A stretch of 39,648 nucleotides of DNA from a virus. The stretch covers positions 1 through 39,648 of the IMG/VR virus record IMGVR_UViG_3300045988_050273; one strand, written 5' to 3'. The notes below the pieces were generated by a model. It was not told where the DNA came from. It searched no databases and saw only the letters and a program-made list of their open reading frames with translations. Positions 962 through 37,326 of this stretch are shown piece after piece; position 1 is the first letter of the stretch, and each line of letters starts with the position of its first letter. A program made the translations under genes and the position numbers.

Positions 962-965
962 AACC

Positions 966-2162: not shown

Positions 2163-2176
2163 GAGGAAAACACACC

Positions 2177-2998
2177 ATGGCAAAAAAAGCAAACAAGAAA
2201 GCAACAGACGAAAAAGCAAGCACTAAAGTAGTATTAAAACCAGCAGAGGGCCTACTGGCAACATTCGTACACTTGACAAAACCGGACGACTTTGGCGACA
2301 CGCCTAAGTATACCGTGACCGTCGTAATTCCTAAGAAAAACAAGAAAGTCGTTAAGCAAGTTAAGGACGCGATCGCTGCAGCTATGGCACGCGGTGAGAG
2401 CGAGGGAACTTTTCAAGGTAAGAACATTAAGAAAGCCATTAACCCGTTGAAAGACGGCGACGACGAAGACACCGAAAAGTATCCATATTACAAAGATACC
2501 TATGTTCTTAAATTTTCTACGGATCGCAAGCCTGGCGTCTTAGACAAGAAAAAGCGCAATATCGGCGACGACGACGAAGAAGTTTACAGCGGTATGCTCA
2601 TTTGGGTATCGGGCGCAGCGTTCCCTTACTTTAATCGTGGTAACTTTGGTGTATCATTTATCTTAGGTAACGTAATCAAGATCGACGACGGAGAACGTAT
2701 TGGGGGGTCCGGCTTTAATATCGAAGACGAGTTCGGGGACGACTTAGAAGACGACGAGTTCGACGAGGACGACGAAGAAGACGAAGACCTGGACGACGAA
2801 GAAGACGAAGACGAAGACGAAGACGAAGACGACGAAGAACTTGACAAAGAGGAAGCGGAAGAGTTGATCGCAGACGTCAAAGAGATCGACAAAAAAGCCG
2901 CTAAGAAATTCCAGAAGAAACTCGATAAGATCGACGACGAGGACGACCTTGAGGAGTTAGTCGAAAAAATCGAGGAATGGATCGAAGAAAATGAGTAG
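2177..2998 (+). CDS. DUF2815-family ssDNA-binding-like protein with a long acidic C-terminal extension
   Basis: The N-terminal roughly 175 aa (VVLKPAEGLLATFVHLTKPDDFGDTPKYTVTVVIPKKNK...YSGMLIWVSGAAFPYFNRGNFGVSFILGNV) fit the DUF2815 pattern and its position between DUF2800 and PolA. Residues from about 180 to 273 are a D/E tract plus helix ending IEEWIEENE. Confidence 0.8.
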   Translation: MAKKANKKATDEKASTKVVLKPAEGLLATFVHLTKPDDFGDTPKYTVTVVIPKKNKKVVKQVKDAIAAAMARGESEGTFQGKNIKKAINPLKDGDDEDTEKYPYYKDTYVLKFSTDRKPGVLDKKKRNIGDDDEEVYSGMLIWVSGAAFPYFNRGNFGVSFILGNVIKIDDGERIGGSGFNIEDEFGDDLEDDEFDEDDEEDEDLDDEEDEDEDEDEDDEELDKEEAEELIADVKEIDKKAAKKFQKKLDKIDDEDDLEELVEKIEEWIEENE

Positions 2999-4958
2999 GC
3001 CAAAAGCCATTCATATTGATATCGAAACTTATAGCGAAACAGAACTTACCAGCACGGGGGTCTATCGGTACGCCGAAGACCCTTTTTTTAAAATTCAACT
3101 TTTCAGCTATGCCTTGGACGACGGACCGGTTAAACTACTGGACCTGGAACAAGGCGACAAAATACCGAAAAGGATCGTTCGCTATATTTTAGATAAGCGC
3201 GTCGAGAAGTGGGCACATAACGCGCAGTTTGAGCGTGTTTCTTTAAGCGTCCATATTTTCGGTGGTTTCGGTGTATTCCTGGACCCGACGAACTGGCGCG
3301 ACACTGCAGTCTATGGCCGGACCCTGGGGCTGCCTGGCAGCTTGGATCAGATGGCTAAGGCCTTAGAACTGGACGACAAAAAAGACGCAGTCGGTAAGCG
3401 TCTGATTAACTATTTCTCTAAGCCGTGCAAGCCGACCAAAGTGAACGGCGGTCGGACCCGGAACTTGCCGGAACACGCGCCGGAGGACTGGAAGCTTTAC
3501 GGTGAGTATAATATCCAGGACGTGGTCGTCGAGCGATCGATCCATGAACGGCTGCAAGCAATGTATCCTAAGTTCCCGGCTCACGAGTGGGAATTTTATG
3601 AAATGGACCAGCGGATCGCGGACACTGGCATACCAGTCGACCTGGACTTTGTTGAAAAAGCGATCAAGCTTAAGAACCGAATGCAGCGCAAAGCGTCGCG
3701 GCAACTTAAACGACTTACTGGCGTCGAAAGCATTAATGCCAAGCAACAACTAAAGGCCTGGGCAGCAGAACAAGGCTACCCAATCACAAGCCTGGACGAG
3801 GATCACAGAAACGCCTATTTAGAAGACCCGGAACTAGGTGAACAGTTCCCAGACGTCTATAAAATGGTAGAACTAATCGACCAAGCTGGCGGTACGGCCG
3901 TGGCCAAGTACGACAAAATTTGGGGATCAACGAACAACGACGGGCGACTACGCGGCCAGCTTATTTTCTACGGCGCTGGGGCCACTGGACGCTTTGCTGG
4001 AAAAGGCGTACAGGTCCAAAACTTGCCACGTATGGGCAAGGACGTACTTAAAAACCTGGACAAGTTACGGGGCCGAGTGAAAGCCGGTAAGCGTGTAACA
4101 TTTAAGGAACTAACGCAGCTATGCCGGACAAGCTTTGCAGCGATTGAGGGCACGACGTTCGGCGTGAGTGACTATAGCAGTATCGAAGCCCGTGTTACAC
4201 CATGGTACGCTGGCGAGAAGTGGGCGATAGACGCCTTTGAAGACGGCCAGGATATCTACGTAGCTACGGCGGTTAAAATGTACCACGTCGACTATGAAAC
4301 AGCCAAAAACGAGTATAGGCAAAAAGGGAAGCAAGCAACGCTGGCCCTAGGTTACGGCGGCGCAGTCGGGGCCCTAGTGGCCATGGGCGCCTTAAACGCT
4401 GGCATACCAGAAAACGAGCTGCCGGAATTGGTCAAGGCTTGGCGACAAGCAAACCCGTCGATCGTCCGCTTTTGGCGTGACACCGAGAAAGCCGTAAAGG
4501 CTATCATACACCACCAGGGCAAGAAAAAAGCGACCCTGGCAGACGGTAAGCTAACGATCACGTATCGAAACGAATATAAGCTACTGCAGATATGGCTACC
4601 TGGTGGTCGGGCGCTTAGTTACTACGGCGCTCACTTGGATCGCAAGAAAAATATCCGCTACCTGGGCGGCATTAAAGCCAACGGCGAAGCCTGGTACAAG
4701 GACACCTTTGGCGGTAAGTTAGTCGAGAACATTGTGCAAGCAACGGCACGCGACTTGCTTTGTGAAGCCTTGTTACGGATCGAAAAAGCTGGCTATCGTA
4801 CGTTATTCCACGTACACGACGAAGCGATCGTCGAGGTCCCTAAAGACTTTGAGATCGAGGAACTTAACGAACTTATGGCAAGCCCACTGCCGAAATGGGC
4901 CAAAGGTTTACCGCTAGGCAGCGAGGGTGACACGGTAAGCTATTACAGAAAAGTCTAG
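2991..4958 (+). CDS. DNA polymerase, family A (with 3'-5' exonuclease domain)
   Basis: Exonuclease motifs: IDIETYS (Exo I), HNAQFERVSL (Exo II), YNIQDVVV (Exo III). Polymerase motifs: SDYSSIEARV (A), RQKGKQATLALGYGGAVGAL (B), HVHDEAIVEV (C). Confidence 0.95.
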   Translation: MSRPKAIHIDIETYSETELTSTGVYRYAEDPFFKIQLFSYALDDGPVKLLDLEQGDKIPKRIVRYILDKRVEKWAHNAQFERVSLSVHIFGGFGVFLDPTNWRDTAVYGRTLGLPGSLDQMAKALELDDKKDAVGKRLINYFSKPCKPTKVNGGRTRNLPEHAPEDWKLYGEYNIQDVVVERSIHERLQAMYPKFPAHEWEFYEMDQRIADTGIPVDLDFVEKAIKLKNRMQRKASRQLKRLTGVESINAKQQLKAWAAEQGYPITSLDEDHRNAYLEDPELGEQFPDVYKMVELIDQAGGTAVAKYDKIWGSTNNDGRLRGQLIFYGAGATGRFAGKGVQVQNLPRMGKDVLKNLDKLRGRVKAGKRVTFKELTQLCRTSFAAIEGTTFGVSDYSSIEARVTPWYAGEKWAIDAFEDGQDIYVATAVKMYHVDYETAKNEYRQKGKQATLALGYGGAVGALVAMGALNAGIPENELPELVKAWRQANPSIVRFWRDTEKAVKAIIHHQGKKKATLADGKLTITYRNEYKLLQIWLPGGRALSYYGAHLDRKKNIRYLGGIKANGEAWYKDTFGGKLVENIVQATARDLLCEALLRIEKAGYRTLFHVHDEAIVEVPKDFEIEELNELMASPLPKWAKGLPLGSEGDTVSYYRKV

Positions 4959-4969
4959 TGTTCGGTGGC

Positions 4970-5026
4970 CTAGCTTACCACAACATATAGCGGCTTTACA
5001 TTTCACCGATATCGGTGGTAAGCTAG
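4970..5026. other. 12-bp inverted repeat enclosing a 14-bp palindrome in the polymerase-primase gap
   Basis: CTAGCTTACCAC (4970..4981) pairs with GTGGTAAGCTAG (5015..5026). The perfect palindrome CACCGATATCGGTG at 5004..5017 overlaps the right arm. TCGGTGG is repeated at 4962..4968 and 5012..5018. No T-run follows. Confidence 0.7.
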
Positions 5027-5058
5027 AAACCTAACCAAAATAATAGCGAGGTAATGAC

Positions 5059-7629
5059 ATGGCAAAGAGTAGAAAATATCCATTCGCGACCGCCAAAAAC
5101 GGGAACACGAAAAAATGGAAACACGAAAATTTAAAGTTTCGTGAAATTCAGAAATACCTTAACGTTGACCGACGTATCAACTTGACACTTGACGAATATA
5201 AAAACCTGGAAAAAGACGAGAAAGCGAAAGTTAAAAACAGCAACCCGGCATTTTTAGGCGGATACTTTGAGGGCCGCCGGACGTCGGTTTCTATGAAAAC
5301 CCGATCAATCGTAGCGCTGGACATTGACAAAAAATTCCCTAGCGATTTTAGCGAGTTCATGCAAGAACACAGCCCGTACCCGTACCATATTTACGAAACA
5401 CTAAGCAGCACGAAAAAGCATAGAAAATATCGCGTGCTTTTCTTTCTAAGCGAGGATATCGACGCAGAGGTCTACGAACCAGTAGCGCGACGGATCGCTG
5501 CCACGTTGAGAATTATCGACTTTGTCGATCACACTTGCTACAGAAAGACGCAGCTTATGTACGCGCCTATCTTTTGCAGCGACGTCGTAGAGCCACTTAA
5601 CGAGTTTATCGGCAACCCAAAAGAGCCAAACATTTCAGCAGCCGAGATCATAGCCAGCTTTGAAAATATTTACAACATTGCCGAATGGGACGCCGGAAAA
5701 GACGAGGGCGCGCTAAGAAAGCAAAACAATATGACCCTTATCGACCCACGGGATAAAAAAGGCGTGATCGGCGCTTTTTGTAACTACGTCGGCGATATCC
5801 ACAATGCTATCGCAATGTACGACCTACCTTACCGGCAAGAAAGCGACGACCGCTACAGCTTTACTGGCGGATCAAGTTCTAACGGGTTCGTGGTCTACGA
5901 CGACGCGCAGTGGGGGTATTCAAACCACGAGAGCGACCCGGCTGGTGAGGGCGGCCACGACCTTAATGCTTTTGACCTGGTACGCGTTCACAAGTTCGGC
6001 GACCGTGATCGCAAGGACGGCTACAAGGACCCAACCAGGGCGCCAAGTTATAAGGCAATGGTAGAAATGCTTATGAGTGATAGCGAGTTCGCTAAAATTT
6101 TAGACGAGCAACGCGCCAGCAACGTACTAGACCGAATCTTTGACGCTGAGAGCGACTTTGGCGACGTCTTTGAAGAAGAAGACCAGCCAGACGTAAAACT
6201 CGTTACAAGCGAAACTAAGGCCAGCAAACGACGTATCGTTATTAACGGCAAAAGCTACCGGAAAAACCCGGCCAAAGATAAACGCCTGGGCAAAAAGCTA
6301 CGGAAGTTTGAAACCCGACTAATCAAGTCCGGGGAAAGCGGCCTACCGGTTAACAATAAGACCAACGTGTACCGGGCAGTCAGAGAACACCCGTTACTTG
6401 AGGACCGTATCCTTTACGACAATTTTACGCGACGCTTGACGTTCGTAGGCGTGAAACCATGGCCGACCACCGAGGGCGACGCCTGGAACGAAAACGACGA
6501 CTTTATGCTTGCAACGTTCCTGGAAAGTCACGACCTTAAGGTACCCGTCGACACGGTACGCCTAGCAACGCAGCAAGTATCACAAGAGCCACAGCACCAA
6601 TTTAACAGCCTGGCAAACTTTTTCAAATACCACTTACCGGAATGGGACGGCGTAGAGCGTGTCGAAACAATGTTTACCGACGCTTTCAACGCAGAGGACA
6701 ACGAAACCAATCGAATGATAGCACGTAAGACATTGCTAGCCGGACTTGAAAGAGCACTAAACGACAAGCCCAGCGAGGTCAAGGCGGTCCCAGTCCTACA
6801 GGGCGCGCAGTCAGTCGGTAAATCGACTTTTTGGCGCTTGCTGGCAATTAATCGCGAATGGTTTACGGATAGTAAGATCGACATAGGTAACAAGGACGGC
6901 CTAAGTATCTTAGGCGGCACGTTTATCGTTGAGTTTGGCGAGTTTGCAAGTATCAAGCGCGCCGATCGTGACGAGGTTAAGCAGTTCCTATCAAGTTCAT
7001 ACGACAAGTACAGACCTAGCTACGCGAAAACAGAACGTACCTTTGTCCGTCATAATATCTTTGTTGGGTCCGTGAATGACGAGGAATTTTTGACCGATCC
7101 GACCGGTAACACACGTTTTAAAGTGGTCCACTGCCCAGGGGATAGCACAGGGGCAGCCCGTGTCGTCGAATTAATGACGCCGGACTACGTACTGCAGCTA
7201 TGGGCGGAAGCCATGGCCATGAGAAACGCTGGCGAAACATTCCTATACACGGCAAAAGACGACCTAGCTACAGAGCAGATCGCTAAACGCCACACGAAAG
7301 CCGGTACGTACGACGAACTTATACAAGCCTTTGTCACAGCTAAGAAACCGAATGACTGGCTTATGGCCGTCGACGACTACGAGAAAGTCGACATACTACG
7401 CAAGATCGTATCGGGTTTTTATAAAGACGACGAGCTAACGATTGACCCAGAACCATGGTTCAGCGCCAGGGACTTACGGACAAGCTTAAATATCCGGGAT
7501 AGTGATGAACCTAAGTACCGCCAGCAGATCGCTGCAGCACTACGGGACATACCTGGACTAAAACAACAGACGCGCAAGATCGGCGGCGTGTCAGTGAGGG
7601 GCTATAGCTATATGGCTTTTAACGATTGA
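5059..7629 (+). CDS. Primase-helicase (N-terminal primase-polymerase-like domain plus VirE/D5-type P-loop NTPase)
   Basis: 856 aa. The N-terminal region has IVALDIDKK and RVLFFLSE motifs typical of phage/plasmid primases. Walker A is VLQGAQSVGKSTFWRLL and Walker B-like is GTFIVEFGEF. It occupies the usual position after PolA in the DUF2800/DUF2815 module. Confidence 0.85.
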   Translation: MAKSRKYPFATAKNGNTKKWKHENLKFREIQKYLNVDRRINLTLDEYKNLEKDEKAKVKNSNPAFLGGYFEGRRTSVSMKTRSIVALDIDKKFPSDFSEFMQEHSPYPYHIYETLSSTKKHRKYRVLFFLSEDIDAEVYEPVARRIAATLRIIDFVDHTCYRKTQLMYAPIFCSDVVEPLNEFIGNPKEPNISAAEIIASFENIYNIAEWDAGKDEGALRKQNNMTLIDPRDKKGVIGAFCNYVGDIHNAIAMYDLPYRQESDDRYSFTGGSSSNGFVVYDDAQWGYSNHESDPAGEGGHDLNAFDLVRVHKFGDRDRKDGYKDPTRAPSYKAMVEMLMSDSEFAKILDEQRASNVLDRIFDAESDFGDVFEEEDQPDVKLVTSETKASKRRIVINGKSYRKNPAKDKRLGKKLRKFETRLIKSGESGLPVNNKTNVYRAVREHPLLEDRILYDNFTRRLTFVGVKPWPTTEGDAWNENDDFMLATFLESHDLKVPVDTVRLATQQVSQEPQHQFNSLANFFKYHLPEWDGVERVETMFTDAFNAEDNETNRMIARKTLLAGLERALNDKPSEVKAVPVLQGAQSVGKSTFWRLLAINREWFTDSKIDIGNKDGLSILGGTFIVEFGEFASIKRADRDEVKQFLSSSYDKYRPSYAKTERTFVRHNIFVGSVNDEEFLTDPTGNTRFKVVHCPGDSTGAARVVELMTPDYVLQLWAEAMAMRNAGETFLYTAKDDLATEQIAKRHTKAGTYDELIQAFVTAKKPNDWLMAVDDYEKVDILRKIVSGFYKDDELTIDPEPWFSARDLRTSLNIRDSDEPKYRQQIAAALRDIPGLKQQTRKIGGVSVRGYSYMAFND

Positions 7630-7667
7630 CCTGGTACGTAAAGTAAGGTACAATGATACCAGGTCAA
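7626..7667 (+). other. 11-bp stem-loop overlapping the primase stop codon
   Basis: TTGACCTGGTA (7626..7636) pairs with TACCAGGTCAA (7657..7667) across a 20-nt loop. There is no U-run, so this is a possible RNA processing or stability element rather than a classic terminator. Confidence 0.5.
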
Positions 7668-7701
7668 GTTGAGGTTGAGGGCATTCTCCTTTGCTACGAG
7701 G

Positions 7702-7735
7702 AAAACCAAGGACTTTAAAGTTTTTGGTTTTTCTT
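7702..7735 (+). terminator. Intrinsic terminator after the primase gene
   Basis: AAAACCAAGGAC (7702..7713) pairs with GTTTTTGGTTTT (7720..7731) using two G-U pairs and loop TTTAAA, running into a T-rich tract (TTTTTCTT). Confidence 0.6.
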
Positions 7736-7736
7736 A

Positions 7737-7766
7737 TTGACAAAATTATGCCCAATGGCATATAAT
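7737..7766 (+). promoter_or_regulatory. Consensus sigma-A promoter P1 with overlapping operator palindrome
   Basis: TTGACA (7737..7742), 18-nt spacer, TATAAT (7761..7766). The spacer and -10 contain TATGCC-CAAT-GGCATA (7747..7762). The same palindrome occurs at 37307..37322 and 39464..39479. Confidence 0.8.
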
Positions 7767-7815
7767 CTAATCAACGGCAACTGACCGAATACAAAACACA
7801 AAGGAGATTTTCAAC

Positions 7816-8493
7816 ATGGCCGAAACATTGGAAAGTATTAAGCAAGAGATCGCAAAGATCGCAGCAGAGAAAGCAGACTTAAAAGGCATTGTCAACCAGC
7901 AAAAGGAAACGATCAAACGACAAGAAACGACGATCGGCAACTTACAGGAAGCACTTAAAGCCGCAGACGCTAACATGATTGACCGGGTTAACAAACTGCA
8001 GAAAGAGATCGACGAGTTTAAAGAAGCGCTGGACCGCGAAGCTACCGAGAACGTAAGACTTATCAAAGAAGTCGGCACACTAACCGAACTCAAAGAAGAC
8101 CTTAAGGAAGACCTTGAAGCGTCCAAAGCAGCACACAACCGGACATGGCAAGAAAAGAGAAACTTAGAGATCGAGGTCCACGAACTACGCCAGGATATCT
8201 TAGAAATGACAGACAAAAACCAAGCTGCCGACGGAATGATTGCAGCACTGACAGCCAAGGACGAGGAACTACGCAAGCTGGGCGAAAAGGTACCAGCTAA
8301 GGATCGCGAGATCAACGACTTAAAAGAGCAAGTTAAGAGCCTGGAAAAAGCGCTGGATCGTAAAGGTGACGACTATTACAGGGTCGCAACTGAAAAAGAA
8401 CACCTAGCCAACGCGATCGAAAACGCGTACCGCTCGCTTATGATTACACGGGGCTACCAGCTGCCAGATGAAAGTGGTGTGAGCAATGGTTAG
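7816..8493 (+). CDS. Coiled-coil protein, unknown function
   Basis: ATG 7816 follows AAGGAG (7801..7806). It is 225 aa and heptad-rich with a K/E/L/Q composition throughout. It is the first gene behind promoter P1. Confidence 0.85.
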   Translation: MAETLESIKQEIAKIAAEKADLKGIVNQQKETIKRQETTIGNLQEALKAADANMIDRVNKLQKEIDEFKEALDREATENVRLIKEVGTLTELKEDLKEDLEASKAAHNRTWQEKRNLEIEVHELRQDILEMTDKNQAADGMIAALTAKDEELRKLGEKVPAKDREINDLKEQVKSLEKALDRKGDDYYRVATEKEHLANAIENAYRSLMITRGYQLPDESGVSNG

Positions 8494-8656
8494 GGGCTAC
8501 GAGATCATACAAGCGATACTTATGGCCATTATTTTTGGTCATGCTTTGACTATTGGTAACAAAATGATTATGCTTATAGCAGCGGCTAGTTTCATAATCT
8601 ACGCAGTACGTTTCAACTATTATGCAATGCAGCCAGCAAAGAAAGGGAGAGGGTAA
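8486..8656 (+). CDS. Small membrane protein (56 aa), not in the ORF track
   Basis: ATG 8486 overlaps the end of the upstream gene. The translation is MVRGYEIIQAILMAIIFGHALTIGNKMIMLIAAASFIIYAVRFNYYAMQPAKKGRG, with two hydrophobic segments. It fills the otherwise empty 8494..8659 gap. The SD is weak. Confidence 0.5.
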   Translation: MVRGYEIIQAILMAIIFGHALTIGNKMIMLIAAASFIIYAVRFNYYAMQPAKKGRG

Positions 8657-8659
8657 ACA

Positions 8660-8911
8660 ATGGCAAAGCCTACAGAAGCAGTACAAGCAATCATTGACGC
8701 AGAGGTAACGACACGTAAACGACGCAACGGGTACACGATCGAAAAAGGTAGCGGCGTCTTATTCTTTTTAGATGATCGCGAAATCTACCACGGGGTCTAT
8801 TTGAATATCGACGACGGTGAACTAATCGCGCCAGCAAAGTATGACGGTGAGTTACGGACCTTAGAGGACCTAGACGCGTACTACGAAGCTACGAGCAGCG
8901 AGGTAGAATAA
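8660..8911 (+). CDS. Hypothetical protein (83 aa)
   Basis: ATG 8660 follows GGGAGAGGG. The stop overlaps the next start (TAATG). Confidence 0.75.
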   Translation: MAKPTEAVQAIIDAEVTTRKRRNGYTIEKGSGVLFFLDDREIYHGVYLNIDDGELIAPAKYDGELRTLEDLDAYYEATSSEVE

Positions 8912-9156
8912 TGGGTAAGCCTTATTATCTTAGGACTGGCACAGGCGATTTTAACTACGTCAATCACAGACTAAACGACGATAGTTACGTTTGTGCCGGT
9001 CCAGGGTATGAGCGCAAGGGTATCAATACTTGTATCCATACCCGACGAGAGTGGAAGAAGTATTTTCCGGACCTGGTACGGTCGGGCAAACTTGAGCGAG
9101 TAACCGGAAAGGCGGCGGTCGCGTGGCGAAAAAGCCAACGATTAGAGAATCAGTAG
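8911..9156 (+). CDS. Hypothetical protein (81 aa)
   Basis: ATG 8911 is coupled to the upstream stop. I recognise no motif. Confidence 0.7.
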   Translation: MGKPYYLRTGTGDFNYVNHRLNDDSYVCAGPGYERKGINTCIHTRREWKKYFPDLVRSGKLERVTGKAAVAWRKSQRLENQ

Positions 9157-9437
9157 TCGAAAGCTACCTAAGAAAACAGGTCATGCTAGCCGGGGGCCTT
9201 TGCTGGAAGTTTACCAGCCCAGGGACCAACGGCGTACCGGATCGCGTTTGCATTATGAACGGCAATATCGTTTTCGTTGAATTAAAACGGCCAGGCGGTA
9301 AGCCTAGGGCCGATCAGATCGCTATTCATAAACTTATGGCCATTAGGGGCGTAGCGACGCTTGTGATCGACAGTAAGCAACAGGTCGACGAGTTGGTCGC
9401 TATGATGAAGAAGAACCAAGGGACCGGTGGCTGGTGA
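9123..9437 (+). CDS. VRR-NUC domain nuclease
   Basis: ESVVESYLRKQV...GVPDRVCIMNGNIVFVELKRPGGKPRADQIAIHKLM fits the PD...ExK...Q pattern of VRR-NUC. GTG start at 9123. Confidence 0.8.
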   Translation: MAKKPTIRESVVESYLRKQVMLAGGLCWKFTSPGTNGVPDRVCIMNGNIVFVELKRPGGKPRADQIAIHKLMAIRGVATLVIDSKQQVDELVAMMKKNQGTGGW

Positions 9438-9462
9438 TCCATTTTAAAAAGTAGAGAGGACG

Positions 9463-9478
9463 TGTTTCACGTGGAACA
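9463..9478. promoter_or_regulatory. parS site 1 (chromosomal ParB/Spo0J-binding centromere-like sequence)
   Basis: TGTTTCACGTGGAACA. Its reverse complement TGTTCCACGTGAAACA matches the TGTTNCACGTGAAACA consensus at 16 of 16 positions. Confidence 0.85.
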
Positions 9479-9758
9479 AGAGATCAAGAAGTTAACCAAG
9501 GCCGTCGACAAACTGGCCAGGGAATTGAAACGGTACAATGATACCAAGAACACAGGGCCAGCCGGTGAGCCTGGTAGTCTGCCAGACGTCAAGGTAAGTC
9601 TAGGCCAGCGTAATGAGGGACGGACATTCGCAAACATGCTAGCTAGGGCCATGAGCCAGGACGCAGATGAACAAGTACGCGAAAAAATGGAAGAGATCGC
9701 GGCGGCACTGAAAGCCGAGCAAGTTAAAAAATATCGCAGCAGAGGGGGACGAAGCTAA
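9471..9758 (+). CDS. Hypothetical protein (95 aa; 98 aa if started at GTG 9462)
   Basis: The track start GTG 9462 lies only 2 nt after the SD AGAGAGGA (9453..9460). GTG 9471, the centre of the parS palindrome, has more plausible spacing. I recognise no family. Confidence 0.7.
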   Translation: MEQEIKKLTKAVDKLARELKRYNDTKNTGPAGEPGSLPDVKVSLGQRNEGRTFANMLARAMSQDADEQVREKMEEIAAALKAEQVKKYRSRGGRS

Positions 9759-10090
9759 TGGAAAAAGGACTTAAAAGATACCCGAACCAGATACCGACAC
9801 GTATGGCAATGACCGAAAAACCCGTGCCGATCCAAAAGAACCCGGAAAGTTGGGACCGTGCCTATGCTGAAATTAAAGTACGGCCGGAGGTAAAAGAAAA
9901 ACTTTGGGAGGGCACGGACAGGGACCTACTTAAGCAGCAGCTGGCCGTTGGTCTAGGGCTGCAGTTGATCGAAGCTTACGGCATAGAGGAAACCGTCGAC
10001 GAAACCGACGGGCACTATATTTACACCGTGACCGCGCCGTTCGGGCCTTATGTTATGAAACACCACAACTACAAACAAGGAGGGTTTTAA
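9758..10090 (+). CDS. Hypothetical protein, paralogue of 37413..37736
   Basis: KPVPIQKNPESWDRAY...LKQQLAVGLGLQLIEAYGIEE aligns with KEIPIQKNLEDWKILA...KRQLATQIGMAIIDHYGMAK of the 37413 gene. Confidence 0.75.
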   Translation: MEKGLKRYPNQIPTRMAMTEKPVPIQKNPESWDRAYAEIKVRPEVKEKLWEGTDRDLLKQQLAVGLGLQLIEAYGIEETVDETDGHYIYTVTAPFGPYVMKHHNYKQGGF

Positions 10091-10091
10091 A

Positions 10092-10487
10092 ATGATAAAT
10101 TTCAAAGTAACCGGCGTCGATATTCAAGCCGACGTAAACCAGGACGACTTCACAAGCGTCATACTTCACACCTTAGTCACAAGCGACAAGAAACGGGGGT
10201 CCGCCGAGGAATTAGAGCAGATCGCTAGGGCAGTCGGTACGCTATGCCATACTGACCTGGAACCCGGGTACGAGGTAAACCGGGCGCCTTTGGGTCACAC
10301 GGTCGAAGAGGTCAACAGTACGATAAGCTACGCTGAAAGCGCAGTGTATGACAGTGTTATGTTAGAACTTAAAAATGCAGCCCTTAAAGGTGTAGCGCCT
10401 ATCCAAGCCATTAAGAACTTAGGCGGCATTGAGAGCGAGGGCGTTCTGCTGGCGGTACGTGACTGGCTTAACGAGGTGACGCAATGA
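10092..10487 (+). CDS. Hypothetical protein (131 aa)
   Basis: ATG 10092 follows AAGGAGGG. The stop overlaps the next start (ATGA). Confidence 0.75.
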   Translation: MINFKVTGVDIQADVNQDDFTSVILHTLVTSDKKRGSAEELEQIARAVGTLCHTDLEPGYEVNRAPLGHTVEEVNSTISYAESAVYDSVMLELKNAALKGVAPIQAIKNLGGIESEGVLLAVRDWLNEVTQ

Positions 10488-10801
10488 TAATCGCAACCTT
10501 TAAACCAGACGGCTTTTGGGTCAAGGGTCATGCAGAATACGCAGAGATCGGTAGCGATATCGTTTGCGCTGCCGTGTCGTCCCTGGTTACTCACACCGTT
10601 CGGCTCATGGCGCAACAAGGGTACCAATACGAACTCACAGAGGACGTCACAGGCCTTGCAGCCGTTAAGGTATTAGTTACACCGTTTGGGGCTTTAAACG
10701 TCATGAGCGCGCTCATGGATAGCCTAAACGACATTGCAGCTCAGTACCCGGAAAATATCGAGGTCCACGACTTTACGAGAAAAGAGGAAGACAATGAATA
10801 A
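10484..10801 (+). CDS. prp: Prp-like cysteine protease (ribosomal protein L27 N-terminal processing family, DUF464)
   Basis: MIIATFKPDGFWVKGHAEYAEIGSDIVCAAVSSLVTHTV carries the family signature GHA...G.DIVCAxVS (His/Cys dyad). The size (105 aa) is typical. Confidence 0.85.
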   Translation: MIIATFKPDGFWVKGHAEYAEIGSDIVCAAVSSLVTHTVRLMAQQGYQYELTEDVTGLAAVKVLVTPFGALNVMSALMDSLNDIAAQYPENIEVHDFTRKEEDNE

Positions 10802-11114
10802 GATCACGTATGCCACTTGCCAGAAGTGTGGCAAAGCTGCAGAATTTGAGGTAAGCCGCGGCCACGCCGTCGTCAAAGCGACGAACGAACCGGCAGACTA
10901 TCAAAGTACCGAGTGCCCAGAGTGTGGCTATATAACTGTATTCACTGCCACCACTGCCCGGCTTAAACATCAGCTGGCGAAGCAAGGCGCGGCGCGGAAA
11001 CAAAGCCGCGGTAAGCGTAGACTAGCTGATACGATACTCGCAGAGTTGACCGTCGTTTCGTCGTTATTAGAGGATCAACTAAACAAAGAAAAGAGGGAAA
11101 ACAATGATTTATAG
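10794..11114 (+). CDS. Zinc-ribbon protein (106 aa)
   Basis: Track ORF 10734 trimmed to ATG 10794 (AAAGAGGAAG SD; 8-nt overlap with prp). CQKCGK...CPECGY forms a CxxC...CxxC ribbon, followed by a basic C-terminal helix. Confidence 0.75.
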   Translation: MNKITYATCQKCGKAAEFEVSRGHAVVKATNEPADYQSTECPECGYITVFTATTARLKHQLAKQGAARKQSRGKRRLADTILAELTVVSSLLEDQLNKEKRENNDL

Positions 11115-11712
11115 ATTTATGTATCAAAACCCACCTAAAGCCACACGCCATGCTAGTATGGCCGTTGCGGTAACGCCTAAAGACCTATCGATCACCGCGA
11201 GAGCTGCTTATCGGGCGAAGTACGGTACGGACATGGTAGCCGACGGCTATAGTTTCTTTGCTCATAGCGCTGAATCGGGCGACGTATACGCTGGCGATCC
11301 GGGTACCGACGCAGACGGTGGGGTCAAAGGTCCGAAGCCGTCGATCCTAGACCTTATAGCGCCGGCATACAGCAAAAAAGTTGATTATGACCCAAAGAGT
11401 GATACAGTTACTTTTCACGGTGGCAGTGATGAAGAAAGTAGGGCTAAGGAAATCATAAGCGAAGTGTTTGAGGATATCGACAGACCGGATCGCTACCTAC
11501 AGGGTGAGATCGACTTGATCGACGCTGCTTACTTGCTTTTTCCCTGGGATCAGTTTAAAGGGTTTATGAAAATAACGATCATGAGATATACGCTACGGTA
11601 CGAGCACAAGGGCTGGCTTAAGGACCTGGACAAGATCACGGTCTACACGCGACGGCTCAAAGAACTGGAAGTTAAGAACAAAGAACGGGAGGATCGCAAT
11701 AATGAAAAGTAA
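11104..11712 (+). CDS. DUF3310-like protein
   Basis: The C-terminal FMKITIMRYTLRYEHKGWLKDLDKITVYTRRLKE resembles the DUF3310 signature (..KY..R...K....DL.K...Y...L). Confidence 0.55.
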   Translation: MIYRFMYQNPPKATRHASMAVAVTPKDLSITARAAYRAKYGTDMVADGYSFFAHSAESGDVYAGDPGTDADGGVKGPKPSILDLIAPAYSKKVDYDPKSDTVTFHGGSDEESRAKEIISEVFEDIDRPDRYLQGEIDLIDAAYLLFPWDQFKGFMKITIMRYTLRYEHKGWLKDLDKITVYTRRLKELEVKNKEREDRNNEK

Positions 11713-12043
11713 ACCAATGATTTTAGCAGCTGCAGCTTTGAAGACCGTCGTACTATTTACGATCGGCGCTGGGACGGTGGGCATGTATGAAATGGTACAG
11801 CACAGGGACGTCTTGGTTATCTTACTAACGATCGGCGTGGTGGCAACGGGCCTTATTTACCTGGTGGAAGTATCCGGGGCGATCGACAAGTCCAAGCCTA
11901 TCCGGCAGCTTTACGACGTCTACGATCGGGACGGCCGAAAATATACGTACCTGGCCAGCAGCAAAGAGGAAGCAGCCGACGAGTTCCTAAAAAAGAACCC
12001 TTGGGCTGGGATCACTAAGGTCGAGCGAGGTGTCGAAGTATGA
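11702..12043 (+). CDS. Membrane protein (113 aa, two predicted TM helices)
   Basis: Hydrophobic segments ILAAAALKTVVLFTIGAGTVG and VLVILLTIGVVATGLIYLV. Confidence 0.7.
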   Translation: MKSKPMILAAAALKTVVLFTIGAGTVGMYEMVQHRDVLVILLTIGVVATGLIYLVEVSGAIDKSKPIRQLYDVYDRDGRKYTYLASSKEEAADEFLKKNPWAGITKVERGVEV

Positions 12044-12186
12044 ACCAGTACAAAGTAAACTACGTAGACTGGAAAGGCCGCGTTACTTGCATGTACGTCT
12101 TTGCTGATACTGAAATGGAAGCACGGGCGCAAGGAATGGTAGGGCAAGGCGTGTTTAAAATAATCAATGTGGAGGTAGTGAAATGA
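12040..12186 (+). CDS. Small protein (48 aa), tandem paralogue 1; not in the ORF track
   Basis: ATG 12040 (ATGA overlap; GAGG 9 nt upstream). The translation is MNQYKVNYVDWKGRVTCMYVFADTEMEARAQGMVGQGVFKIINVEVVK. It ends in the repeated junction GGAGGTAGTGAAATGA. Confidence 0.6.
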   Translation: MNQYKVNYVDWKGRVTCMYVFADTEMEARAQGMVGQGVFKIINVEVVK

Positions 12187-12335
12187 GAACCTGGGACTAT
12201 TGTGTTACCTATATCGACATGCTAGGCGAACGGACCAAGGCGATCGTAGCGGCCAGCAGTGCCAGAGAAGCAGAACTAGAAATCATTACGGAATGTTACC
12301 CACAAGAAATCATACACACGGAGGTAGTGAAATGA
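12183..12335 (+). CDS. Small protein (50 aa), tandem paralogue 2; not in the ORF track
   Basis: ATG 12183 lies within GGAGGTAGTGAAATGA. The translation is MRTWDYCVTYIDMLGERTKAIVAASSAREAELEIITECYPQEIIHTEVVK. It shares the Y.V.Y.D..G...A....EA...I..EVVK pattern with 12040..12186. Confidence 0.6.
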   Translation: MRTWDYCVTYIDMLGERTKAIVAASSAREAELEIITECYPQEIIHTEVVK

Positions 12336-12508
12336 TTAAAGTAGTTTTCAACATGGCCAGCGGTCAGAAATTAACCGGAGATATGGACGAAGAACAGTAT
12401 CAAGCACTTATTCAGGCAGCCATAGAGGAACCCGTTATCGAGATCAGGGGCGACGGTAAGCGTGTCGTCATATTTACAAAATACATCGAAAGCATTACAA
12501 GGGGGTAG
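12332..12508 (+). CDS. Small protein (58 aa)
   Basis: Track ORF 12200 trimmed to ATG 12332, which follows the second GGAGGTAGTGAAATGA junction. The translation starts MIKVVFNMASGQKLTGDMDEEQYQAL... Confidence 0.65.
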   Translation: MIKVVFNMASGQKLTGDMDEEQYQALIQAAIEEPVIEIRGDGKRVVIFTKYIESITRG

Positions 12509-12512
12509 TGAA

Positions 12513-13013
12513 ATGAGCACACTGTTAAGTCACGCAAAAGAAGAATTGAAACGATACAACAATGGCCTATACGGCGACATGTTAAGCGAAGCAATTTACG
12601 AGATCGTCGAGGTATTCGCAAAGCAAGGTCATAGCGGTTTTAGCGCAGCAATGGCAGCCGAAGCAGCTGGGCGCTTGATGAACTTTAAACCTTTGACACC
12701 ATTGACCGGGGAAGACGACGAGTGGAAAGAGCTGGACTACCTAGGCGGCCATGCACGCTGGCAGAACAAGCGCCACACTTCACTATTCAAGGACGAAGAT
12801 GGTTTTTGCTACGACCTTGACGCCGTAACCTTTGAAGACGTAGACGAGCCTGGTAACTTCTTCACTAATGGCGACCTGGTACGTCGTTACCACCGAGGTA
12901 TTCCGCGGATCAAGTTCCCTTACATGCCAGCAGATAAGCCCGTAGTGTGCAAGATCAAAGAACTTAACGACGGTACGCGTGTGATCGTCGACTATGGGGC
13001 TGGGCGCAGATGA
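12513..13013 (+). CDS. Hypothetical protein (166 aa)
   Basis: Track ORF 12462 trimmed to ATG 12513, which follows the third junction copy GGGGGTAGTGAAATG. Confidence 0.75.
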   Translation: MSTLLSHAKEELKRYNNGLYGDMLSEAIYEIVEVFAKQGHSGFSAAMAAEAAGRLMNFKPLTPLTGEDDEWKELDYLGGHARWQNKRHTSLFKDEDGFCYDLDAVTFEDVDEPGNFFTNGDLVRRYHRGIPRIKFPYMPADKPVVCKIKELNDGTRVIVDYGAGRR

Positions 13014-14686
13014 AGTTCGTCCCACACGACTACCAACAGACCGCGCTTGACTTCATGATGAGCCACAACCGGGCGCTCATTATCCAAGACATGGGACTAG
13101 GTAAAACTGTGACCAGCCTTACCGCTATCAAGAAATCAATGTTTCCCACAGACGGCAGTGAGCCACGCTATCGTCGTCCGCTTATCATTGCGCCTAAGAT
13201 CGTATCGGAAAACACCTGGGCTAACGAGTTAGCGAAATGGGATCACTTGAAGACGCTCAAATATATTGAACTGGACGCCACACGGGTCGACCAGCGGATA
13301 GAACAATTTGACAGAATCGACGACGGCGTCCTAACGATCATGAGCGAAAGCAAAATACAGTGGCTTATTGACACGCTTAACGACGTGACCCAAGACCGTG
13401 AATGGCCTTGGGATTGCGTCTATATCGACGAGATCAGTATTTTCAAAAGCCCAAAGAGCCAGCGCTTTAAGAACCTTAAGAAGAAGCTGCAGAACCGTTG
13501 CGACTACGTCTATGGTTTAACTGGTACGCCAGCGCCGAATGACCTGGCCGACCTTTGGGCGATCATGCTACTAATTGACCGCGGCGCCAGACTAGGTGAT
13601 ACCCGTAAGTATTTCAACAAGACTTACTGCAAAGGGATCACGGTGAAAGTCAACGGTGGGGACCAGGAGATCACGAACTACAAAGTGGCCGACGAAGCCT
13701 ACGACCGGGTACTAGAAGATATCAGCGACATATGTATAGCCATGAGCGCCAAGGATCACCTGGACGATAACCCAGAGATCGAACTACACAAGCACGAAGT
13801 CAAGCTGCCTAAGAAGACGCTGGACTTGATCGACGAGCTGACGGTTAAGCGTGTCCTGGAACTCGCTGGACGAGAAAGCAGCCACAAGGTCGAACGTATT
13901 GAGCGACGGATCGAAAAGTACCAGGCAAGCGGATCGTTAGCAAAGCAGCGACGTATTCCTAAGCTTAGACAAAAGGCCCAACGGATCAAAGACGCCGAGG
14001 GCAGCGGTGATATTGTGTTACGTGCCAGCCATGTATTTAGTCTGATATCCATAGGCCGCCAGATTGCCGGGGGCGCCGTTTACGAGGGCGTACCGGAAAC
14101 CGACGACGAGGACCTTATCGCAGAGTTTTACAAGAACCGACGTGTCATAGAAGACAATGATACAAAGCTTGCTAAAGTCCAGGAGATCGTCGACGGGGTC
14201 AATGACAACGTACTTATCTTTTATCACTATAAACACGAAGCAGATCGGATCAAGTCGCTTTACCCAGACGCTAAGGTCCTTAACACAGCGAACGCTAGAC
14301 GAGTGATACCAGAGTGGAACCGAAAGAGGATACGCGTGTTACTGGCGAACCCGGCGAGTACAAAGTTTGGCTTGAATATGCAAGACGGCGGCCACACGAT
14401 CATATGGTACGGCTTAGACTATTCATTTGAGAAGTACGTCCAATCGAACGCCAGACTGGCACGTCAAGGACAGAAGAACAAGGTCGACGTCCACTTGCTA
14501 CTCGCAGCCGACACGATCGACAGAGATATCGAAGCGGCCATAGTTTCTAAGTCGTCGATAAACGATTTTGTATACGATAGCCTAAGCGCCAGCAAAGAAG
14601 CACGGGCAGAAGTCCAGCGCGCAGCTACGGATCGGATCGGCAAGGCAACCCAGCGTGCTACGGGTCGTCGTGTTATCGTGCAATAA
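13010..14686 (+). CDS. SNF2/DEAD-like superfamily 2 helicase
   Basis: Motif I is IIQDMGLGKTVTSL, motif II is VYIDEISIFK, motif III is GLTGTPAPN, and motif VI is QSNARLARQGQ. Confidence 0.9.
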   Translation: MKFVPHDYQQTALDFMMSHNRALIIQDMGLGKTVTSLTAIKKSMFPTDGSEPRYRRPLIIAPKIVSENTWANELAKWDHLKTLKYIELDATRVDQRIEQFDRIDDGVLTIMSESKIQWLIDTLNDVTQDREWPWDCVYIDEISIFKSPKSQRFKNLKKKLQNRCDYVYGLTGTPAPNDLADLWAIMLLIDRGARLGDTRKYFNKTYCKGITVKVNGGDQEITNYKVADEAYDRVLEDISDICIAMSAKDHLDDNPEIELHKHEVKLPKKTLDLIDELTVKRVLELAGRESSHKVERIERRIEKYQASGSLAKQRRIPKLRQKAQRIKDAEGSGDIVLRASHVFSLISIGRQIAGGAVYEGVPETDDEDLIAEFYKNRRVIEDNDTKLAKVQEIVDGVNDNVLIFYHYKHEADRIKSLYPDAKVLNTANARRVIPEWNRKRIRVLLANPASTKFGLNMQDGGHTIIWYGLDYSFEKYVQSNARLARQGQKNKVDVHLLLAADTIDRDIEAAIVSKSSINDFVYDSLSASKEARAEVQRAATDRIGKATQRATGRRVIVQ

Positions 14687-14711: not shown

Positions 14712-14972
14712 AAGCTAGTAACCTACCTAGTATACCACCTAGTACACCGCAAAACGTTATCGTACCAGTGCTTTTAACTAGGTACTACTAGGTCATACTA
14801 GCTTTATATAACTTTTAAATTAGGGGTATAGTATGCTATTAGGCATAACAGTATATTAGAATTACAGAATAGTTTAAAAAACCTCGTAATACCTAGTAAC
14901 CTCGTAACCAGCCCGGTATGACAACGTTTCGGCGGTATACGAGCCTGAAACGACCTCGTAACCTCGTATACC
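14712..14972 (+). repeat. Structured ~260-bp non-coding element, copy A (second copy at 24958..25216)
   Basis: It aligns block by block with 24958..25216: AAGCTAGTA, TACCACCTAGTACACCG, ACTAGGT..TACTAGGTCATACTAGCTTTATATAA, TATAGT, TATATTAG, AATAGTTTAAAA, TACCTAGTAACCTCGTAAC, GGTATACGAGCC, GACCTCGTA.CCTCGTA.ACC. It contains at least 8 copies of CCT(A/C)GTA or its complement. Confidence 0.9.
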
Positions 14973-14977
14973 TTTTT
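14934..14977 (+). terminator. Perfect 10-bp hairpin plus T5 at the 3' end of repeat copy A
   Basis: GGTATACGAG (14934..14943) pairs with CTCGTATACC (14963..14972), followed by TTTTT (14973..14977). The homologous hairpin in copy B (25178..25216) has no T-run. Confidence 0.55.
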
Positions 14978-15090
14978 AGCGTAATGTTCGTGTTTTGCCG
15001 TGTTTGCCGTGTTAAAAAAATTAATGTTCGTGTTACCCGGGTTACAACACGGCAAGTAACGCTAAAAACGCGCGTCGACCCGGGTTAAGA
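14978..15090. repeat. Repeat-dense non-coding segment upstream of the packaging genes (candidate pac/cos or origin-like region)
   Basis: Direct repeats: TAATGTTCGTGTT x2 (14982..14994, 15022..15034), tandem TTGCCGTGT x2 (14995..15012), and ACCCGGGTTA x2 (15035..15044, 15078..15087). Inverted partner ACACGGCAA lies at 15047..15055. Outer stem is TAGCGT/ACGCTA. Confidence 0.6.
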
Positions 15091-15108
15091 TCAAGGAGGA
15101 CAAAGTCA

Positions 15109-15655: not shown

Positions 15656-15852
15656 ACGACAACGATTTAAGACGCCTAGCTGCCTTGATTGCAAAGCCAG
15701 TCAAGGAACAAGGTGCAACGCCAGCGAACGCGGCCTATATTGTACGGCCAGCCATGACTAAGTTCGACGTAGCATTCCGAGCGATCGGAATTGCCATGAC
15801 ACCACAAGAGAAAGAACGGGTCGTCGAACTCGTAATTAATAAGCTGGGCTAG
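15652..15852 (+). CDS. Hypothetical protein (66 aa)
   Basis: ATG 15652 is coupled to the upstream gene by an ATGA overlap. Confidence 0.7.
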   Translation: MNDNDLRRLAALIAKPVKEQGATPANAAYIVRPAMTKFDVAFRAIGIAMTPQEKERVVELVINKLG

Positions 15853-15910
15853 CGCCTGGCTTTTTTTGTGGTATTATAGAGCCATACAGAAACGAAAGGA
15901 GAACAGGCTC

Positions 15911-22565: not shown

Positions 22566-22603
22566 TTAAGGGCTGGGGCTTAGGTCCTAGCCCTTAATTT
22601 TTT
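22566..22603 (+). terminator. Intrinsic terminator after the capsid/Big_2 genes
   Basis: TTAAGGGCTGGGG (22566..22578) pairs with CCTAGCCCTTAA (22586..22597), followed by TTTTTT. Confidence 0.8.
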
Positions 22604-24097: not shown

Positions 24098-24115
24098 TTT
24101 AGGAGAGTGAAAAAC

Positions 24116-24910
24116 GTGAAAGACATCAAACTTTTTTCTATGAACTTGCAGCGCTTTGCACGTGCTAAGAACGCTTTGCGTGGTCACTTTATCGCAGAGT
24201 ATACGCCGGGCGAAGACATGCCAGACGTAGCAGACGGTACGAAGTGGCTAGAGCTTGCAAAATGGATCAGCAACATTGACGACGATACAGACGAAGAAAC
24301 TGACGACACCGGTTTCTATGACGGCGACGGTACACCAGAAACGACAGTCGTATCCGTAGCGATCGGCTATTCAGTCGAGGGGTTCTATGATAGCCAAGAC
24401 CCAGCGCAGCAACTCATTAAGAGCAAAAAGCGCAAAGTCGGCGACGGCCGTAAAGTCTGGCATATGGTAGTGGACGCAGATCAAGTCAATATGTGGATCG
24501 GTCGCGCTACAGTAACCGATATCGTAGCCGGTGGCGGCGACGCTACAGAATTTGAAGCATTTAGCTGCAGTATTCGCTTTGATAGCATTCCAAGCGAACT
24601 AGCGGCCGCTGGGGTAGGCGTACCGGCTAACATTAACGGCAGCACGGACGTAGTACCTACAGCCGTTACCATTTCTGGGGCAGCACCTACAATCAAAGTA
24701 GGGGCTACAGTAGAGTTAGGCACACGCTTAGGCTTTACACCGACTACAGCTACGGTACGTACCGGGTCATGGGCTACCACTGATAAAACAGTGGCTACTG
24801 TGAACCAGGCCGGACTTGTAACTGGCTTGAAAGTCGGAACAGCGACGATCGTATTCGTAACAACGAACGGCCTAGTGGCCCAAGTTGTCGTAACCGTCGA
24901 AGCAGCATAA
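24116..24910 (+). CDS. Major tail protein with L27-like N-terminal leader and C-terminal Big_2 domain
   Basis: It lies upstream of the chaperone and tape-measure genes. The start region GGAGAGTGAAAAACGTGAAA matches the capsid start region at 18 of 20 positions, which places the start at GTG 24116 (track start 24107). The leader is MKDIKLFSMNLQRF/ARAK. The C-terminal roughly 90 aa fit the Big_2 pattern. Confidence 0.8.
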   Translation: MKDIKLFSMNLQRFARAKNALRGHFIAEYTPGEDMPDVADGTKWLELAKWISNIDDDTDEETDDTGFYDGDGTPETTVVSVAIGYSVEGFYDSQDPAQQLIKSKKRKVGDGRKVWHMVVDADQVNMWIGRATVTDIVAGGGDATEFEAFSCSIRFDSIPSELAAAGVGVPANINGSTDVVPTAVTISGAAPTIKVGATVELGTRLGFTPTTATVRTGSWATTDKTVATVNQAGLVTGLKVGTATIVFVTTNGLVAQVVVTVEAA

Positions 24911-24920: not shown

Positions 24921-24955
24921 AACGGGCTGGGGCTTTGGCCCTGGTCCGTTTTTTG
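24921..24955 (+). terminator. Intrinsic terminator after the major tail gene
   Basis: AACGGGCTGGGGC (24921..24933) pairs with GCCCTGGTCCGTT (24938..24950) using G-U pairs, followed by a T-run (24949..24954). Confidence 0.75.
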
Positions 24956-24957: not shown

Positions 24958-25216
24958 AAGCTAGTATGCCGGCTCGTCTACCACCTAGTACACCGTGAAA
25001 CGTTGACAGACCGGGCTTGTTACTAGGTGTTACTAGGTCATACTAGCTTTATATAAGATTTAATTTAGGTATAGTGGTCCTAGGGGTACCCTACACTATA
25101 TTAGTATTGTATAATAGTTTAAAAGCGCTCGTAGTACCTAGTAACCTCGTAACTAGACCGGTACGACAGCCTTTTGAGGTATACGAGCCAAAAATGGACC
25201 TCGTACCTCGTACACC
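24958..25216 (+). repeat. Structured ~260-bp non-coding element, copy B
   Basis: It is homologous to 14712..14972. It contains TACTAGG x2 plus TACTAGCTT (25021..25049), TTTATA/TATAGT (25048..25075), an extended -10 TGTATAAT (25108..25115), a CCT(A/C)GTA array (25127..25212) and a hairpin (25178..25216) that abuts the SD of the next gene. Confidence 0.9.
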
Positions 25217-37297: not shown

Positions 37298-37326
37298 TTG
37301 ACAAATTATGCCTTTGGGCATATACT
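37298..37326 (+). promoter_or_regulatory. Near-consensus sigma-A promoter P3 with operator palindrome
   Basis: TTGACA (37298..37303), 17-nt spacer, TATACT (37321..37326). TATGCC-TTTG-GGCATA lies at 37307..37322. The upstream context TTTTTCTTGTTGACAAA parallels P1. Confidence 0.8.

Follow-up and report, generated by a model that had tools for sequence, protein, structure and literature searches.

Two copies of an iteron-flanked AT-rich element as putative replication origins of a virulent siphophage

The stretch of DNA analysed here, hereafter the window, is IMG/VR record IMGVR_UViG_3300045988_050273 (39,648 nucleotides), a complete phage genome of ~39.5 kb with an assembly overlap in which bases 1-119 recur at 39530-39648. 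It contains two direct copies of one non-coding element, copy A at 14712-14977 and copy B at 24958-25216, in which short repeats (iterons) flank an AT-rich core. We infer, with a probability of roughly 0.7, that both copies are putative replication origins of the iteron/AT-rich/iteron type found with the Rep proteins of staphylococcal pathogenicity islands (SaPIs), and that they are read by the primase-helicase of the phage. An earlier note on this DNA, made from the letters alone, had offered an origin-like iteron region as one of several alternatives. It is this alternative that is favoured by what is established here, namely the anatomy of the element, its conservation, the homology of the candidate initiator to SaPI Rep, and the co-variation of the repeat word with the C-terminal domain of the initiator in one pair of phages. 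Origins of this type are already known; the duplication and the distance from the initiator gene are what is unusual.

Anatomy and conservation of the duplicated element

Copies A and B align over ~260 bp, lie 10.2 kb apart as direct repeats and are flanked by unrelated sequence. The earlier note had described this duplication as 14712..14972 against 24958..25216 with unrelated flanks, and alignment confirmed all of these coordinates. The best blocks in a repeat search have 83% identity over 82 nt and 87% identity over 55 nt, and their starts in the two copies are 10245 nt apart. Each copy contains 12 sites of the iteron consensus A-S-CTMGTA-W in the same order, orientation and spacing, six on each side of the core. 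From left to right, both copies have three plus sites, three minus sites, the AT-rich core, three plus sites, and finally one minus and two plus sites. The inner triplets therefore face opposite ways (minus on the left, plus on the right), and in each copy the inner sites are separated by 86 bp. Site-to-site gaps (A/B) are 12, 12, 37/38, 10, 10 and 86 in the left part and 10, 8, ~38 (37 in B, summed across an extra hit), 16/17 and 8/7 in the right part; the one additional, overlapping motif match in copy B is apparently incidental. The word CCTMGTA is observed 21 times in the window against 9.3 expected, and 17 of the 21 occurrences are within the two elements. For ASCTMGTA, 22 occurrences were observed against 4.9 expected, 19 of them in the elements, and none of 100 shuffles reached 22. 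Outside copies A and B, the window has no non-coding cluster of a repeated 7-mer. The parts of the two copies are as follows.

14713..14745, + strand: copy A left-distal iterons, three direct sites AGCTAGTAA, ACCTAGTAT and ACCTAGTAC at 12-bp spacing
14775..14803, - strand: copy A left-proximal iterons, three inverted sites at 10-bp spacing that abut the AT-rich core
14804..14880, no strand: copy A AT-rich core, putative DNA-unwinding element
14881..14907, + strand: copy A right-proximal iterons, three direct sites at 10- and 8-bp spacing
14934..14977, + strand: copy A right-distal iterons, one inverted and two direct, which form a 10-bp hairpin GGTATACGAG / CTCGTATACC
24958..25216, + strand: copy B, plan as in copy A
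24959-24991: copy B left-distal iterons, three plus sites
25020-25048: copy B left-proximal iterons, three minus sites
25049-25125: copy B AT-rich core
25126-25152: copy B right-proximal iterons, three plus sites
25178-25216: copy B right-distal iterons, one minus and two plus sites

Conservation is higher at the motif positions than elsewhere in the element. Between A and B, identity is 83% at motif positions and 64-69% in the remainder; against orthologous copies in other phages, the values are 66-70% and 40-55%, respectively. This difference indicates that the duplication is under selection and is not neutral, a distinction on which the earlier note had placed weight.

The core of copy A is the most AT-rich 80-bp segment of the genome (77.5% AT) and that of copy B is the third. 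In the same ranking, the cores of the two elements of Enterococcus phage EC99P2 are first and second in their genome (88.7% and 85% AT), and those of contig L064 and of element 1 of Lactococcus phage 1358 are each first in theirs. A TATA(T/A)A box (14805-14811 in A) at the left edge of the core is invariant in 10 of the 10 copies compared. The core also contains hexamers resembling those of sigma-70 promoters, TTTATA (14803-14808) and TATAGT (14827-14832) in copy A, separated by 18 nt in A and 16 nt in B and matching 9 of 12 consensus positions in each. Since the region is AT-rich, such matches are expected by chance. No DnaA boxes were found in A or B with up to one mismatch allowed.

The substructures that the earlier note had listed for copy A are all present as it described them, including the TTTATA-18-TATAGT core, the motif array, the stem AAGCTAGTA / TACTAGCTT, the CCTAGTA / TACTAGG sites inside that stem, and the 10-bp hairpin. 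The outer stem, the inner stem and the hairpin are all pairs of oppositely oriented iterons. The hairpin (-17.6 kcal/mol, z = -2.2) had been called terminator-like. The hairpin and the TTTTT run that follows it (14973-14977) are indeed there, the run being restricted to copy A, as had been noted, and missing from B and relatives. A terminator is not supported: the 19-nt loop accounts for the lack of a terminator call by the scanner, and relatives keep the right-distal feature as an arrangement of sites, not as a hairpin with a U-run.

Copy A alone is followed by a repeat-dense tail (14978..15108, + strand), which lies outside the duplicated element and contains AATGTTCGTGTT twice, TGCCGTGTT twice plus once inverted, and CCCGGGTTA twice. 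These repeats are absent elsewhere in the genome, except for one minus-strand match to GCCGTGTT at 39079, and repeats of an AACGCG type occupy the equivalent region of EC99P2. The tail could be a pac or small-terminase site or a control region of the late operon.

Judged by the identity of the SNF2 helicase, whose gene precedes copy A, the nearest deposited phages are EC99P2 (70%) and 1358 (49%). EC99P2 has the element twice, 11.2 kb apart and both syntenic with the window; its word is SCTAGTRTAC, and its cores exceed those of the window in AT content. In phage 1358, two analogous elements with the word GGTACAC lie 17.3 kb apart and are not syntenic with the window, one being between the portal gene and orf4 (minor head) and the other past the endolysin gene, ahead of the early genes. 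The 1358-like contig L069 contains one element in the available sequence, after the endolysin gene, with the word GTCCGCG. Metagenome contigs were located through neighbouring proteins. Contigs L057-L063 carry near-identical copies of B, and an element lies 3' of the SNF2 helicase gene in L064 and L065 (CCTAGTGTGA / CCTAGTTAC), L066, L067 (CCTTGTACAC), L074 and L075 (CGTTCACAC). The comparison of copy B covers the window lineage, EC99P2 and 1358. The earlier note had raised the occurrence of the repeats in related phages: the architecture is present there, but the repeat words differ by lineage (CTAGTRTAC, CCTTGTACAC, CGTTCACAC, GGTACAC and GTCCGCG). Common to these elements are oppositely oriented sites around an AT-rich core of 75-115 bp. 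Inner triplets of three minus and three plus sites are also found in EC99P2, L064 and L067, and the 1358 clade has two plus and two minus sites. A terminator precedes or sits within the element in EC99P2, L067, 1358 and L069.

Copies within a genome are more alike than orthologues between genomes, and copy B of the L058 lineage has as its left arm a sequence found in copy A of the window. Both points suggest co-evolution of the copies with one initiator and gene conversion between them. In nucleotide searches, the copy A region matched GenBank phages only in coding sequence of EC99P2, and the copy B region matched nothing there. In IMG/VR, the helicase query yielded nothing beyond relatives at 25-36% identity and one short 51% fragment, and neither the tail-chaperone query nor the left-arm DNA pattern had a match. 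The right-arm pattern found nothing in GTDB genomes, and its sole match in JGI metagenomes (L073) was set aside as a chance match in unrelated, non-phage-like DNA. A literature search found no paper naming EC99P2.

Two further arrangements were observed among relatives. EC99P2 has an additional partial right-distal iteron module (two minus sites and one plus, then a terminator; L001 19403-19500) ~200 bp upstream of its full copy A, which may be a remnant of a further copy. In L075, whose SNF2 helicase is 62% identical, the same place is taken by an 826-bp intergenic region (3906-4731) with CGTTCACAC iterons and two perfect DnaA boxes (TTATCCACA) that are absent from the window element.

The primase-helicase as candidate initiator

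The proposed initiator and its proposed iteron-reading domain are encoded well upstream of both copies.

5059..7629, + strand: primase-helicase gene, 856 amino acids, VapE-like domain, SaPI1 Rep1 homologue, proposed initiator
~7366-7611 (residues ~770-851): C-terminal winged-helix domain, proposed iteron reader

SaPI Reps are self-loading helicases that double as initiators (PMC9371898). Their C-terminal winged helices bind 6-12 iterons flanking a central AT-rich region. At least two iterons lie on each flank, in opposite orientation across the region, and a pair of hexamers is probably loaded, one at each flank (PMC9371898). The profile of the phage primase-helicase matches the structure of SaPI1 Rep1 with DNA (PDB 7PDS) with an E-value of 6.5e-44 over Rep1 residues 14-446 of 477, and the match runs into the C-terminal domain of Rep1. 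In an AlphaFold model (62 sequences, mean predicted confidence, pLDDT, 88.6), residues 773-851 form a winged-helix-like succession of helix, strand, helix, helix and beta-hairpin. The top Foldseek matches of this model are the chains of 7PDS (E 2.6e-28, target-normalised template-modelling score 0.73-0.76, ~450 of ~450 residues). Annotation of the replication module with PHROG and Pfam revealed no DnaB-type helicase and no loader.

The earlier note had recognised no known family, yet the iteron/AT-rich/iteron origins of SaPI-type self-loading Rep helicases fit the element. The initiators are homologous in sequence and fold, including the C-terminal winged-helix domain, and in both systems short iterons (12 here, 6-12 in SaPIs) are split half and half around an AT-rich centre in opposite orientation. 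The fusion of primase and helicase resembles PriRep5, and differences in iteron word accompany differences in the C-terminal domain of the initiator, here in one pair. The systems also differ. SaPI origins lie immediately 3' of rep, whereas 7.1 and 17.3 kb separate the end of the primase-helicase gene at 7629 from copies A and B, respectively, downstream of it. There are two copies per genome here, the iterons are 8-9 bp instead of 5-6 bp, and the host replicon is not a satellite but a virulent siphophage with its own family-A polymerase. A comparable prediction was published in 2026 for Enterococcus phage Abitsa, a siphophage of the genus Efquatrovirus, with a SaPI5-like origin, a self-loading helicase homologous to PriRep5 and 10-bp iterons around an AT-rich region (PMC13517437). 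The Abitsa origin rests on the same kind of inference and is likewise predicted only, but it is single and at the expected locus, unlike the duplicated and displaced elements described here.

The proposed link between iterons and initiator draws on a comparison of 1358 with L069. Their primase-helicases are 71-97% identical in every 60-column window of the alignment up to column 780, whereas identity falls to 38% and 33% in the last two windows, which correspond to the C-terminal domain. Their iterons (GGTACAC and GTCCGCG) occupy corresponding positions but differ in sequence, while the element can otherwise be aligned and its terminator and core boxes are kept. Of 11 other proteins compared between these phages, 10 are 73-95% identical. 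In this one informative pair, then, the alignments indicate that the repeat word and the C-terminal domain of the primase-helicase vary together.

The intergenic region past the primase-helicase gene of the window contains only early promoters and one stray motif. A cluster does occupy this position in two more distantly related phages whose primase-helicases are homologous to that of the window. Enterococcus phage EFP1 (L071 14656-14968) has a single cluster of TGGATAC in 11 copies, and Staphylococcus phage StauST398-2 (L072 16643-16900) a single cluster of TGCAACA in 7 copies, each directly 3' of a VapE-type primase-helicase gene. Both clusters consist of inverted and direct 7-mers with AT-rich stretches. 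Unlike the window phage, EFP1 and StauST398-2 are SaPI-like in having the cluster directly 3' of the rep homologue, and the clusters are probably unannotated SaPI-type origins in deposited genomes.

The earlier note had named helix-turn-helix (HTH) proteins as candidate binders of the array. They were set aside because they have a likely operator elsewhere, in the early promoters, and more probably bind that different palindrome. The early sigma-A promoters of the window (7737-7766 and 37298-37326) have the forms TTGACA-18-TATAAT and TTGACA-17-TATACT with a palindrome, ATGCC-N4-GGCAT, in the spacer. A third such palindrome (39460-39480) is located just past the HTH gene at 39215-39451, and EC99P2 has the same type of early promoter at L001 19982-20010. 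ATGCC-N4-GGCAT is probably the target of one of the Cro/CI-like HTH_3 proteins.

Genomic setting and alternative readings

Every gene of the window is on the plus strand. The features that surround the two copies are as follows.

891 to 14686: replication module, comprising a PD-(D/E)XK exonuclease, a Gp2.5-like single-stranded DNA-binding (SSB) / annealing protein, a family-A DNA polymerase, the primase-helicase, accessory genes and an SNF2 helicase
13010-14686, + strand: SNF2 helicase gene
Past the SNF2 helicase gene, in order: three small genes, then terS, terL, portal, head genes, major tail protein, tail and lysis
24107-24910, + strand: major tail protein gene
24921-24955, + strand: intrinsic terminator (13-bp stem and T-run) between the major tail protein gene and copy B, which it directly precedes

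Copy A largely occupies the 422-bp gap between the SNF2 helicase gene and the small genes upstream of terS. Copy B is located between the terminator at 24921-24955 and the ribosome-binding site of a tail gene, 17 nt from the ATG at 25234. A strong intrinsic terminator (15841-15866, 9-bp stem and T7) stops 4 nt short of the terS start codon, and others within the late region are at 22566-22597 and 24921-24955. As there is no promoter between the terminator at 15841-15866 and terS, expression of the packaging and head genes needs read-through or antitermination.

Several points weigh against an origin. Adjacency to the initiator gene, one of the features that define SaPI origins, is lacking for both elements. 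The co-variation comes from a single informative phage pair, in which one neighbouring gene, 1358 orf30, is also fairly divergent (55-62%), although it has no homologue in the window phage. Within the window clade, divergence of the C-terminal domain follows overall divergence and is not decisive. Cumulative GC skew over the whole genome rises monotonically and gives no origin signal, but it is uninformative because all genes are on one strand. Both copies also lie where a late promoter would be suited, A ahead of the packaging and head genes and B past a terminator and just before a tail gene. The invariant TATA(T/A)A box may belong to a promoter, and a scan of the window found no other convincing late promoter.

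These last points lead to the possibility that the element is a regulated late or middle promoter, in which the iterons are activator or repressor sites around a non-canonical core promoter and the two copies head two late units. The TATA(T/A)A box directly past the inverted sites, the sequence TGTATAAT at 25108-25115 in copy B, the placement of A before the packaging module and of B against a ribosome-binding site, and the terminator 4 nt before terS are all in keeping with such a promoter. The hexamers match the consensus equally well in both copies, but their spacer differs (18 nt in A, 16 nt in B). Equal numbers of sites on either side of the core are typical of origins and not of activator-dependent promoters. 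The 1358 copies occupy other gene boundaries (portal/minor head and endolysin/early genes), and good, separate sigma-A promoters follow the element in EC99P2, L067 and 1358. The repeat word co-varies with a domain of the primase-helicase, and the HTH candidates have another likely operator. A phage sigma factor was considered for the gene at 7816-8493 and rejected: the weak PHROG match is a coiled-coil artefact, and the gene has no homologue in EC99P2 or 1358. On this evidence, it seems unlikely that the element is a promoter instead of an origin.

Far less credible is a discrete structured non-coding RNA of ~100-150 nt, an alternative that the earlier note had also offered and that is taken here to extend from the core to the hairpin and U-run. 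The left half of the element does fold well (z = -5.0 in A, -3.4 in B), and in A the 3' hairpin (z about -2.2) precedes a run of five U residues. However, that run is missing from B and from the relatives, the internal TATAGTG / CACTATA hairpin of copy B in the window is lost in L057, and EC99P2 does not retain the outer 10-bp stem of A. No Rfam family was matched at its gathering score, the only matches being sub-threshold, miRNA-like and by E-value alone, and a tRNA scan found nothing. Direct repeats change in parallel with inverted ones between 1358 and L069, which is explained by the specificity of a DNA-binding protein and not by an RNA fold.

The array could instead serve another DNA transaction, as a small-terminase pac site, a partition or nucleoid-organising site, or a recombination site at which the two direct repeats would bring about deletion or excision. 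We regard this as very unlikely. Copy A is near terS, but B is distant from the terminase genes and two pac sites per genome would be aberrant. Contig L067 has a different terminase type (Terminase_2 / Terminase_3), yet the same element follows its helicase gene. In contig L061, the 3' flank of the helicase gene (the A side) is joined to the tail-chaperone gene (the B side) through a single element, and contigs L058-L063, L068 and L074 begin or stop within the element, which counts in favour of this reading. De Bruijn assemblers, however, produce such breaks and chimeras when they meet a 260-bp repeat. The head genes would be lost in an A x B deletion, and no recombinase or ParB-like gene was found among the annotated genes of the window. 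L061 is most likely an assembly chimera across the repeat, although a real A x B recombinant is possible.

Other features of the genome were observed in passing. An anti-Thoeris Tad3 homologue is encoded at 12462-13013 (PF25185, E 9e-33), and a Tad2-like gene adjoins the packaging genes in L064 (13322-13663). A small open reading frame at 10484-10801 matches the Prp cysteine protease family (PF04327, E 1e-15) and is kept in L064, L066 and L074. A tail protein of 1509 amino acids (30724-35253) contains long collagen-like G-X-Y repeats with 234/243-bp periodicity. Long acidic D/E tracts close both a 248-amino-acid protein (215-961) and the SSB protein, with corresponding GAA/GAC repeats at 658-790 and 2710-2880.

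A model for two putative origins and its implications

If copies A and B are origins, the C-terminal winged helix of the primase-helicase would recognise the 8-9 bp iterons. Given six iterons on each side of a ~77-bp core and opposed inner triplets, two hexamers could assemble, one per side. The hexamers would then melt the core, self-load, and prime synthesis for the family-A polymerase of the phage. Promoter and origin functions could coexist, since a promoter within the core that aids origin opening through transcription, or that drives the downstream late genes, would be compatible with an origin.

The presence of two copies may be accounted for in three ways. Both copies may fire. Alternatively, one may act as an initiator-bound barrier that stalls forks and switches replication to concatemer synthesis by way of the phage exonuclease and annealing protein, as proposed for oriR of phage SPP1. 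One copy may also serve as an enhancer in the manner of crr in the satellite phage P4. The P4 alpha protein combines primase, superfamily 3 (SF3)-type helicase and a C-terminal DNA-binding domain on one polypeptide and binds both ori and crr. These are two cis-acting regions a few kb apart with direct and inverted octamer iterons, and crr is required along with ori without being a copy of it. The phage described here resembles P4 in its one-polypeptide initiator and in having iterons at two separate regions, but differs in that A and B are full copies of each other.

The earlier note had named SPP1 as a precedent for two related origins, and rightly so: the two SPP1 origins lie ~13 kb from each other, one being in the late region, and both combine similar repeats with an AT-rich element for unwinding (PMC6316719). 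Initiator bound at the second origin has been proposed to stall forks and to trigger the switch to concatemers (PMC6316719, PMC3485210). The window phage and SPP1 share two dispersed copies of repeats with an AT-rich segment (10.2 and ~13 kb apart, respectively), of which one occupies an intergenic island within the late structural region, with transcription signals on either side. Both also encode an exonuclease and an annealing/SSB protein, possible processors of a stalled fork. The differences concern the initiator: SPP1 uses gp38, the loader gp39 and the DnaB-type helicase gp40, whereas a single SF3-type primase-helicase is present here. In addition, oriL lies inside the initiator gene, and the repeats of the two phages are unrelated.

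A more specific proposal is that the copies form an obligatory, coordinated pair, in which one fires while the other, loaded with hexamers, serves as a programmed fork barrier or recombination hotspot, as a replication-coupled late promoter, or as both. In the first role it would switch theta replication to concatemer synthesis; in the second, origin occupancy or firing would license the late genes (those for packaging and the head past A, those for the tail past B). This proposal is speculative and rather unlikely. If it were true, the fixed geometry of six and six sites would be a natural template on which to study double-hexamer assembly by a self-loading SF3-type helicase.

To our knowledge, most phages that infect lactic-acid bacteria and enterococci lack an annotated origin. 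The analysis offers a concrete and testable assignment of origin and initiator for the 1358 / EC99P2-like group, which includes phages relevant to dairy and the gut. Cloned origin fragments could confer origin-based phage resistance and define satellites or plasmids that the phage could replicate. For metagenomics, the element breaks assemblies and can generate chimeric contigs. It is also indicated that the SaPI Rep/iteron system occurs in virulent siphophages. Unlike in SaPIs, the putative origin cassette is uncoupled from the initiator gene and occurs twice in each of three diverged lineages. SPP1, whose initiator is unrelated, is the sole well-studied two-origin parallel of which we are aware. 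Together, the two-copy state in three lineages and the unrelated initiator of SPP1 suggest convergent selection for a second initiator-bound site.

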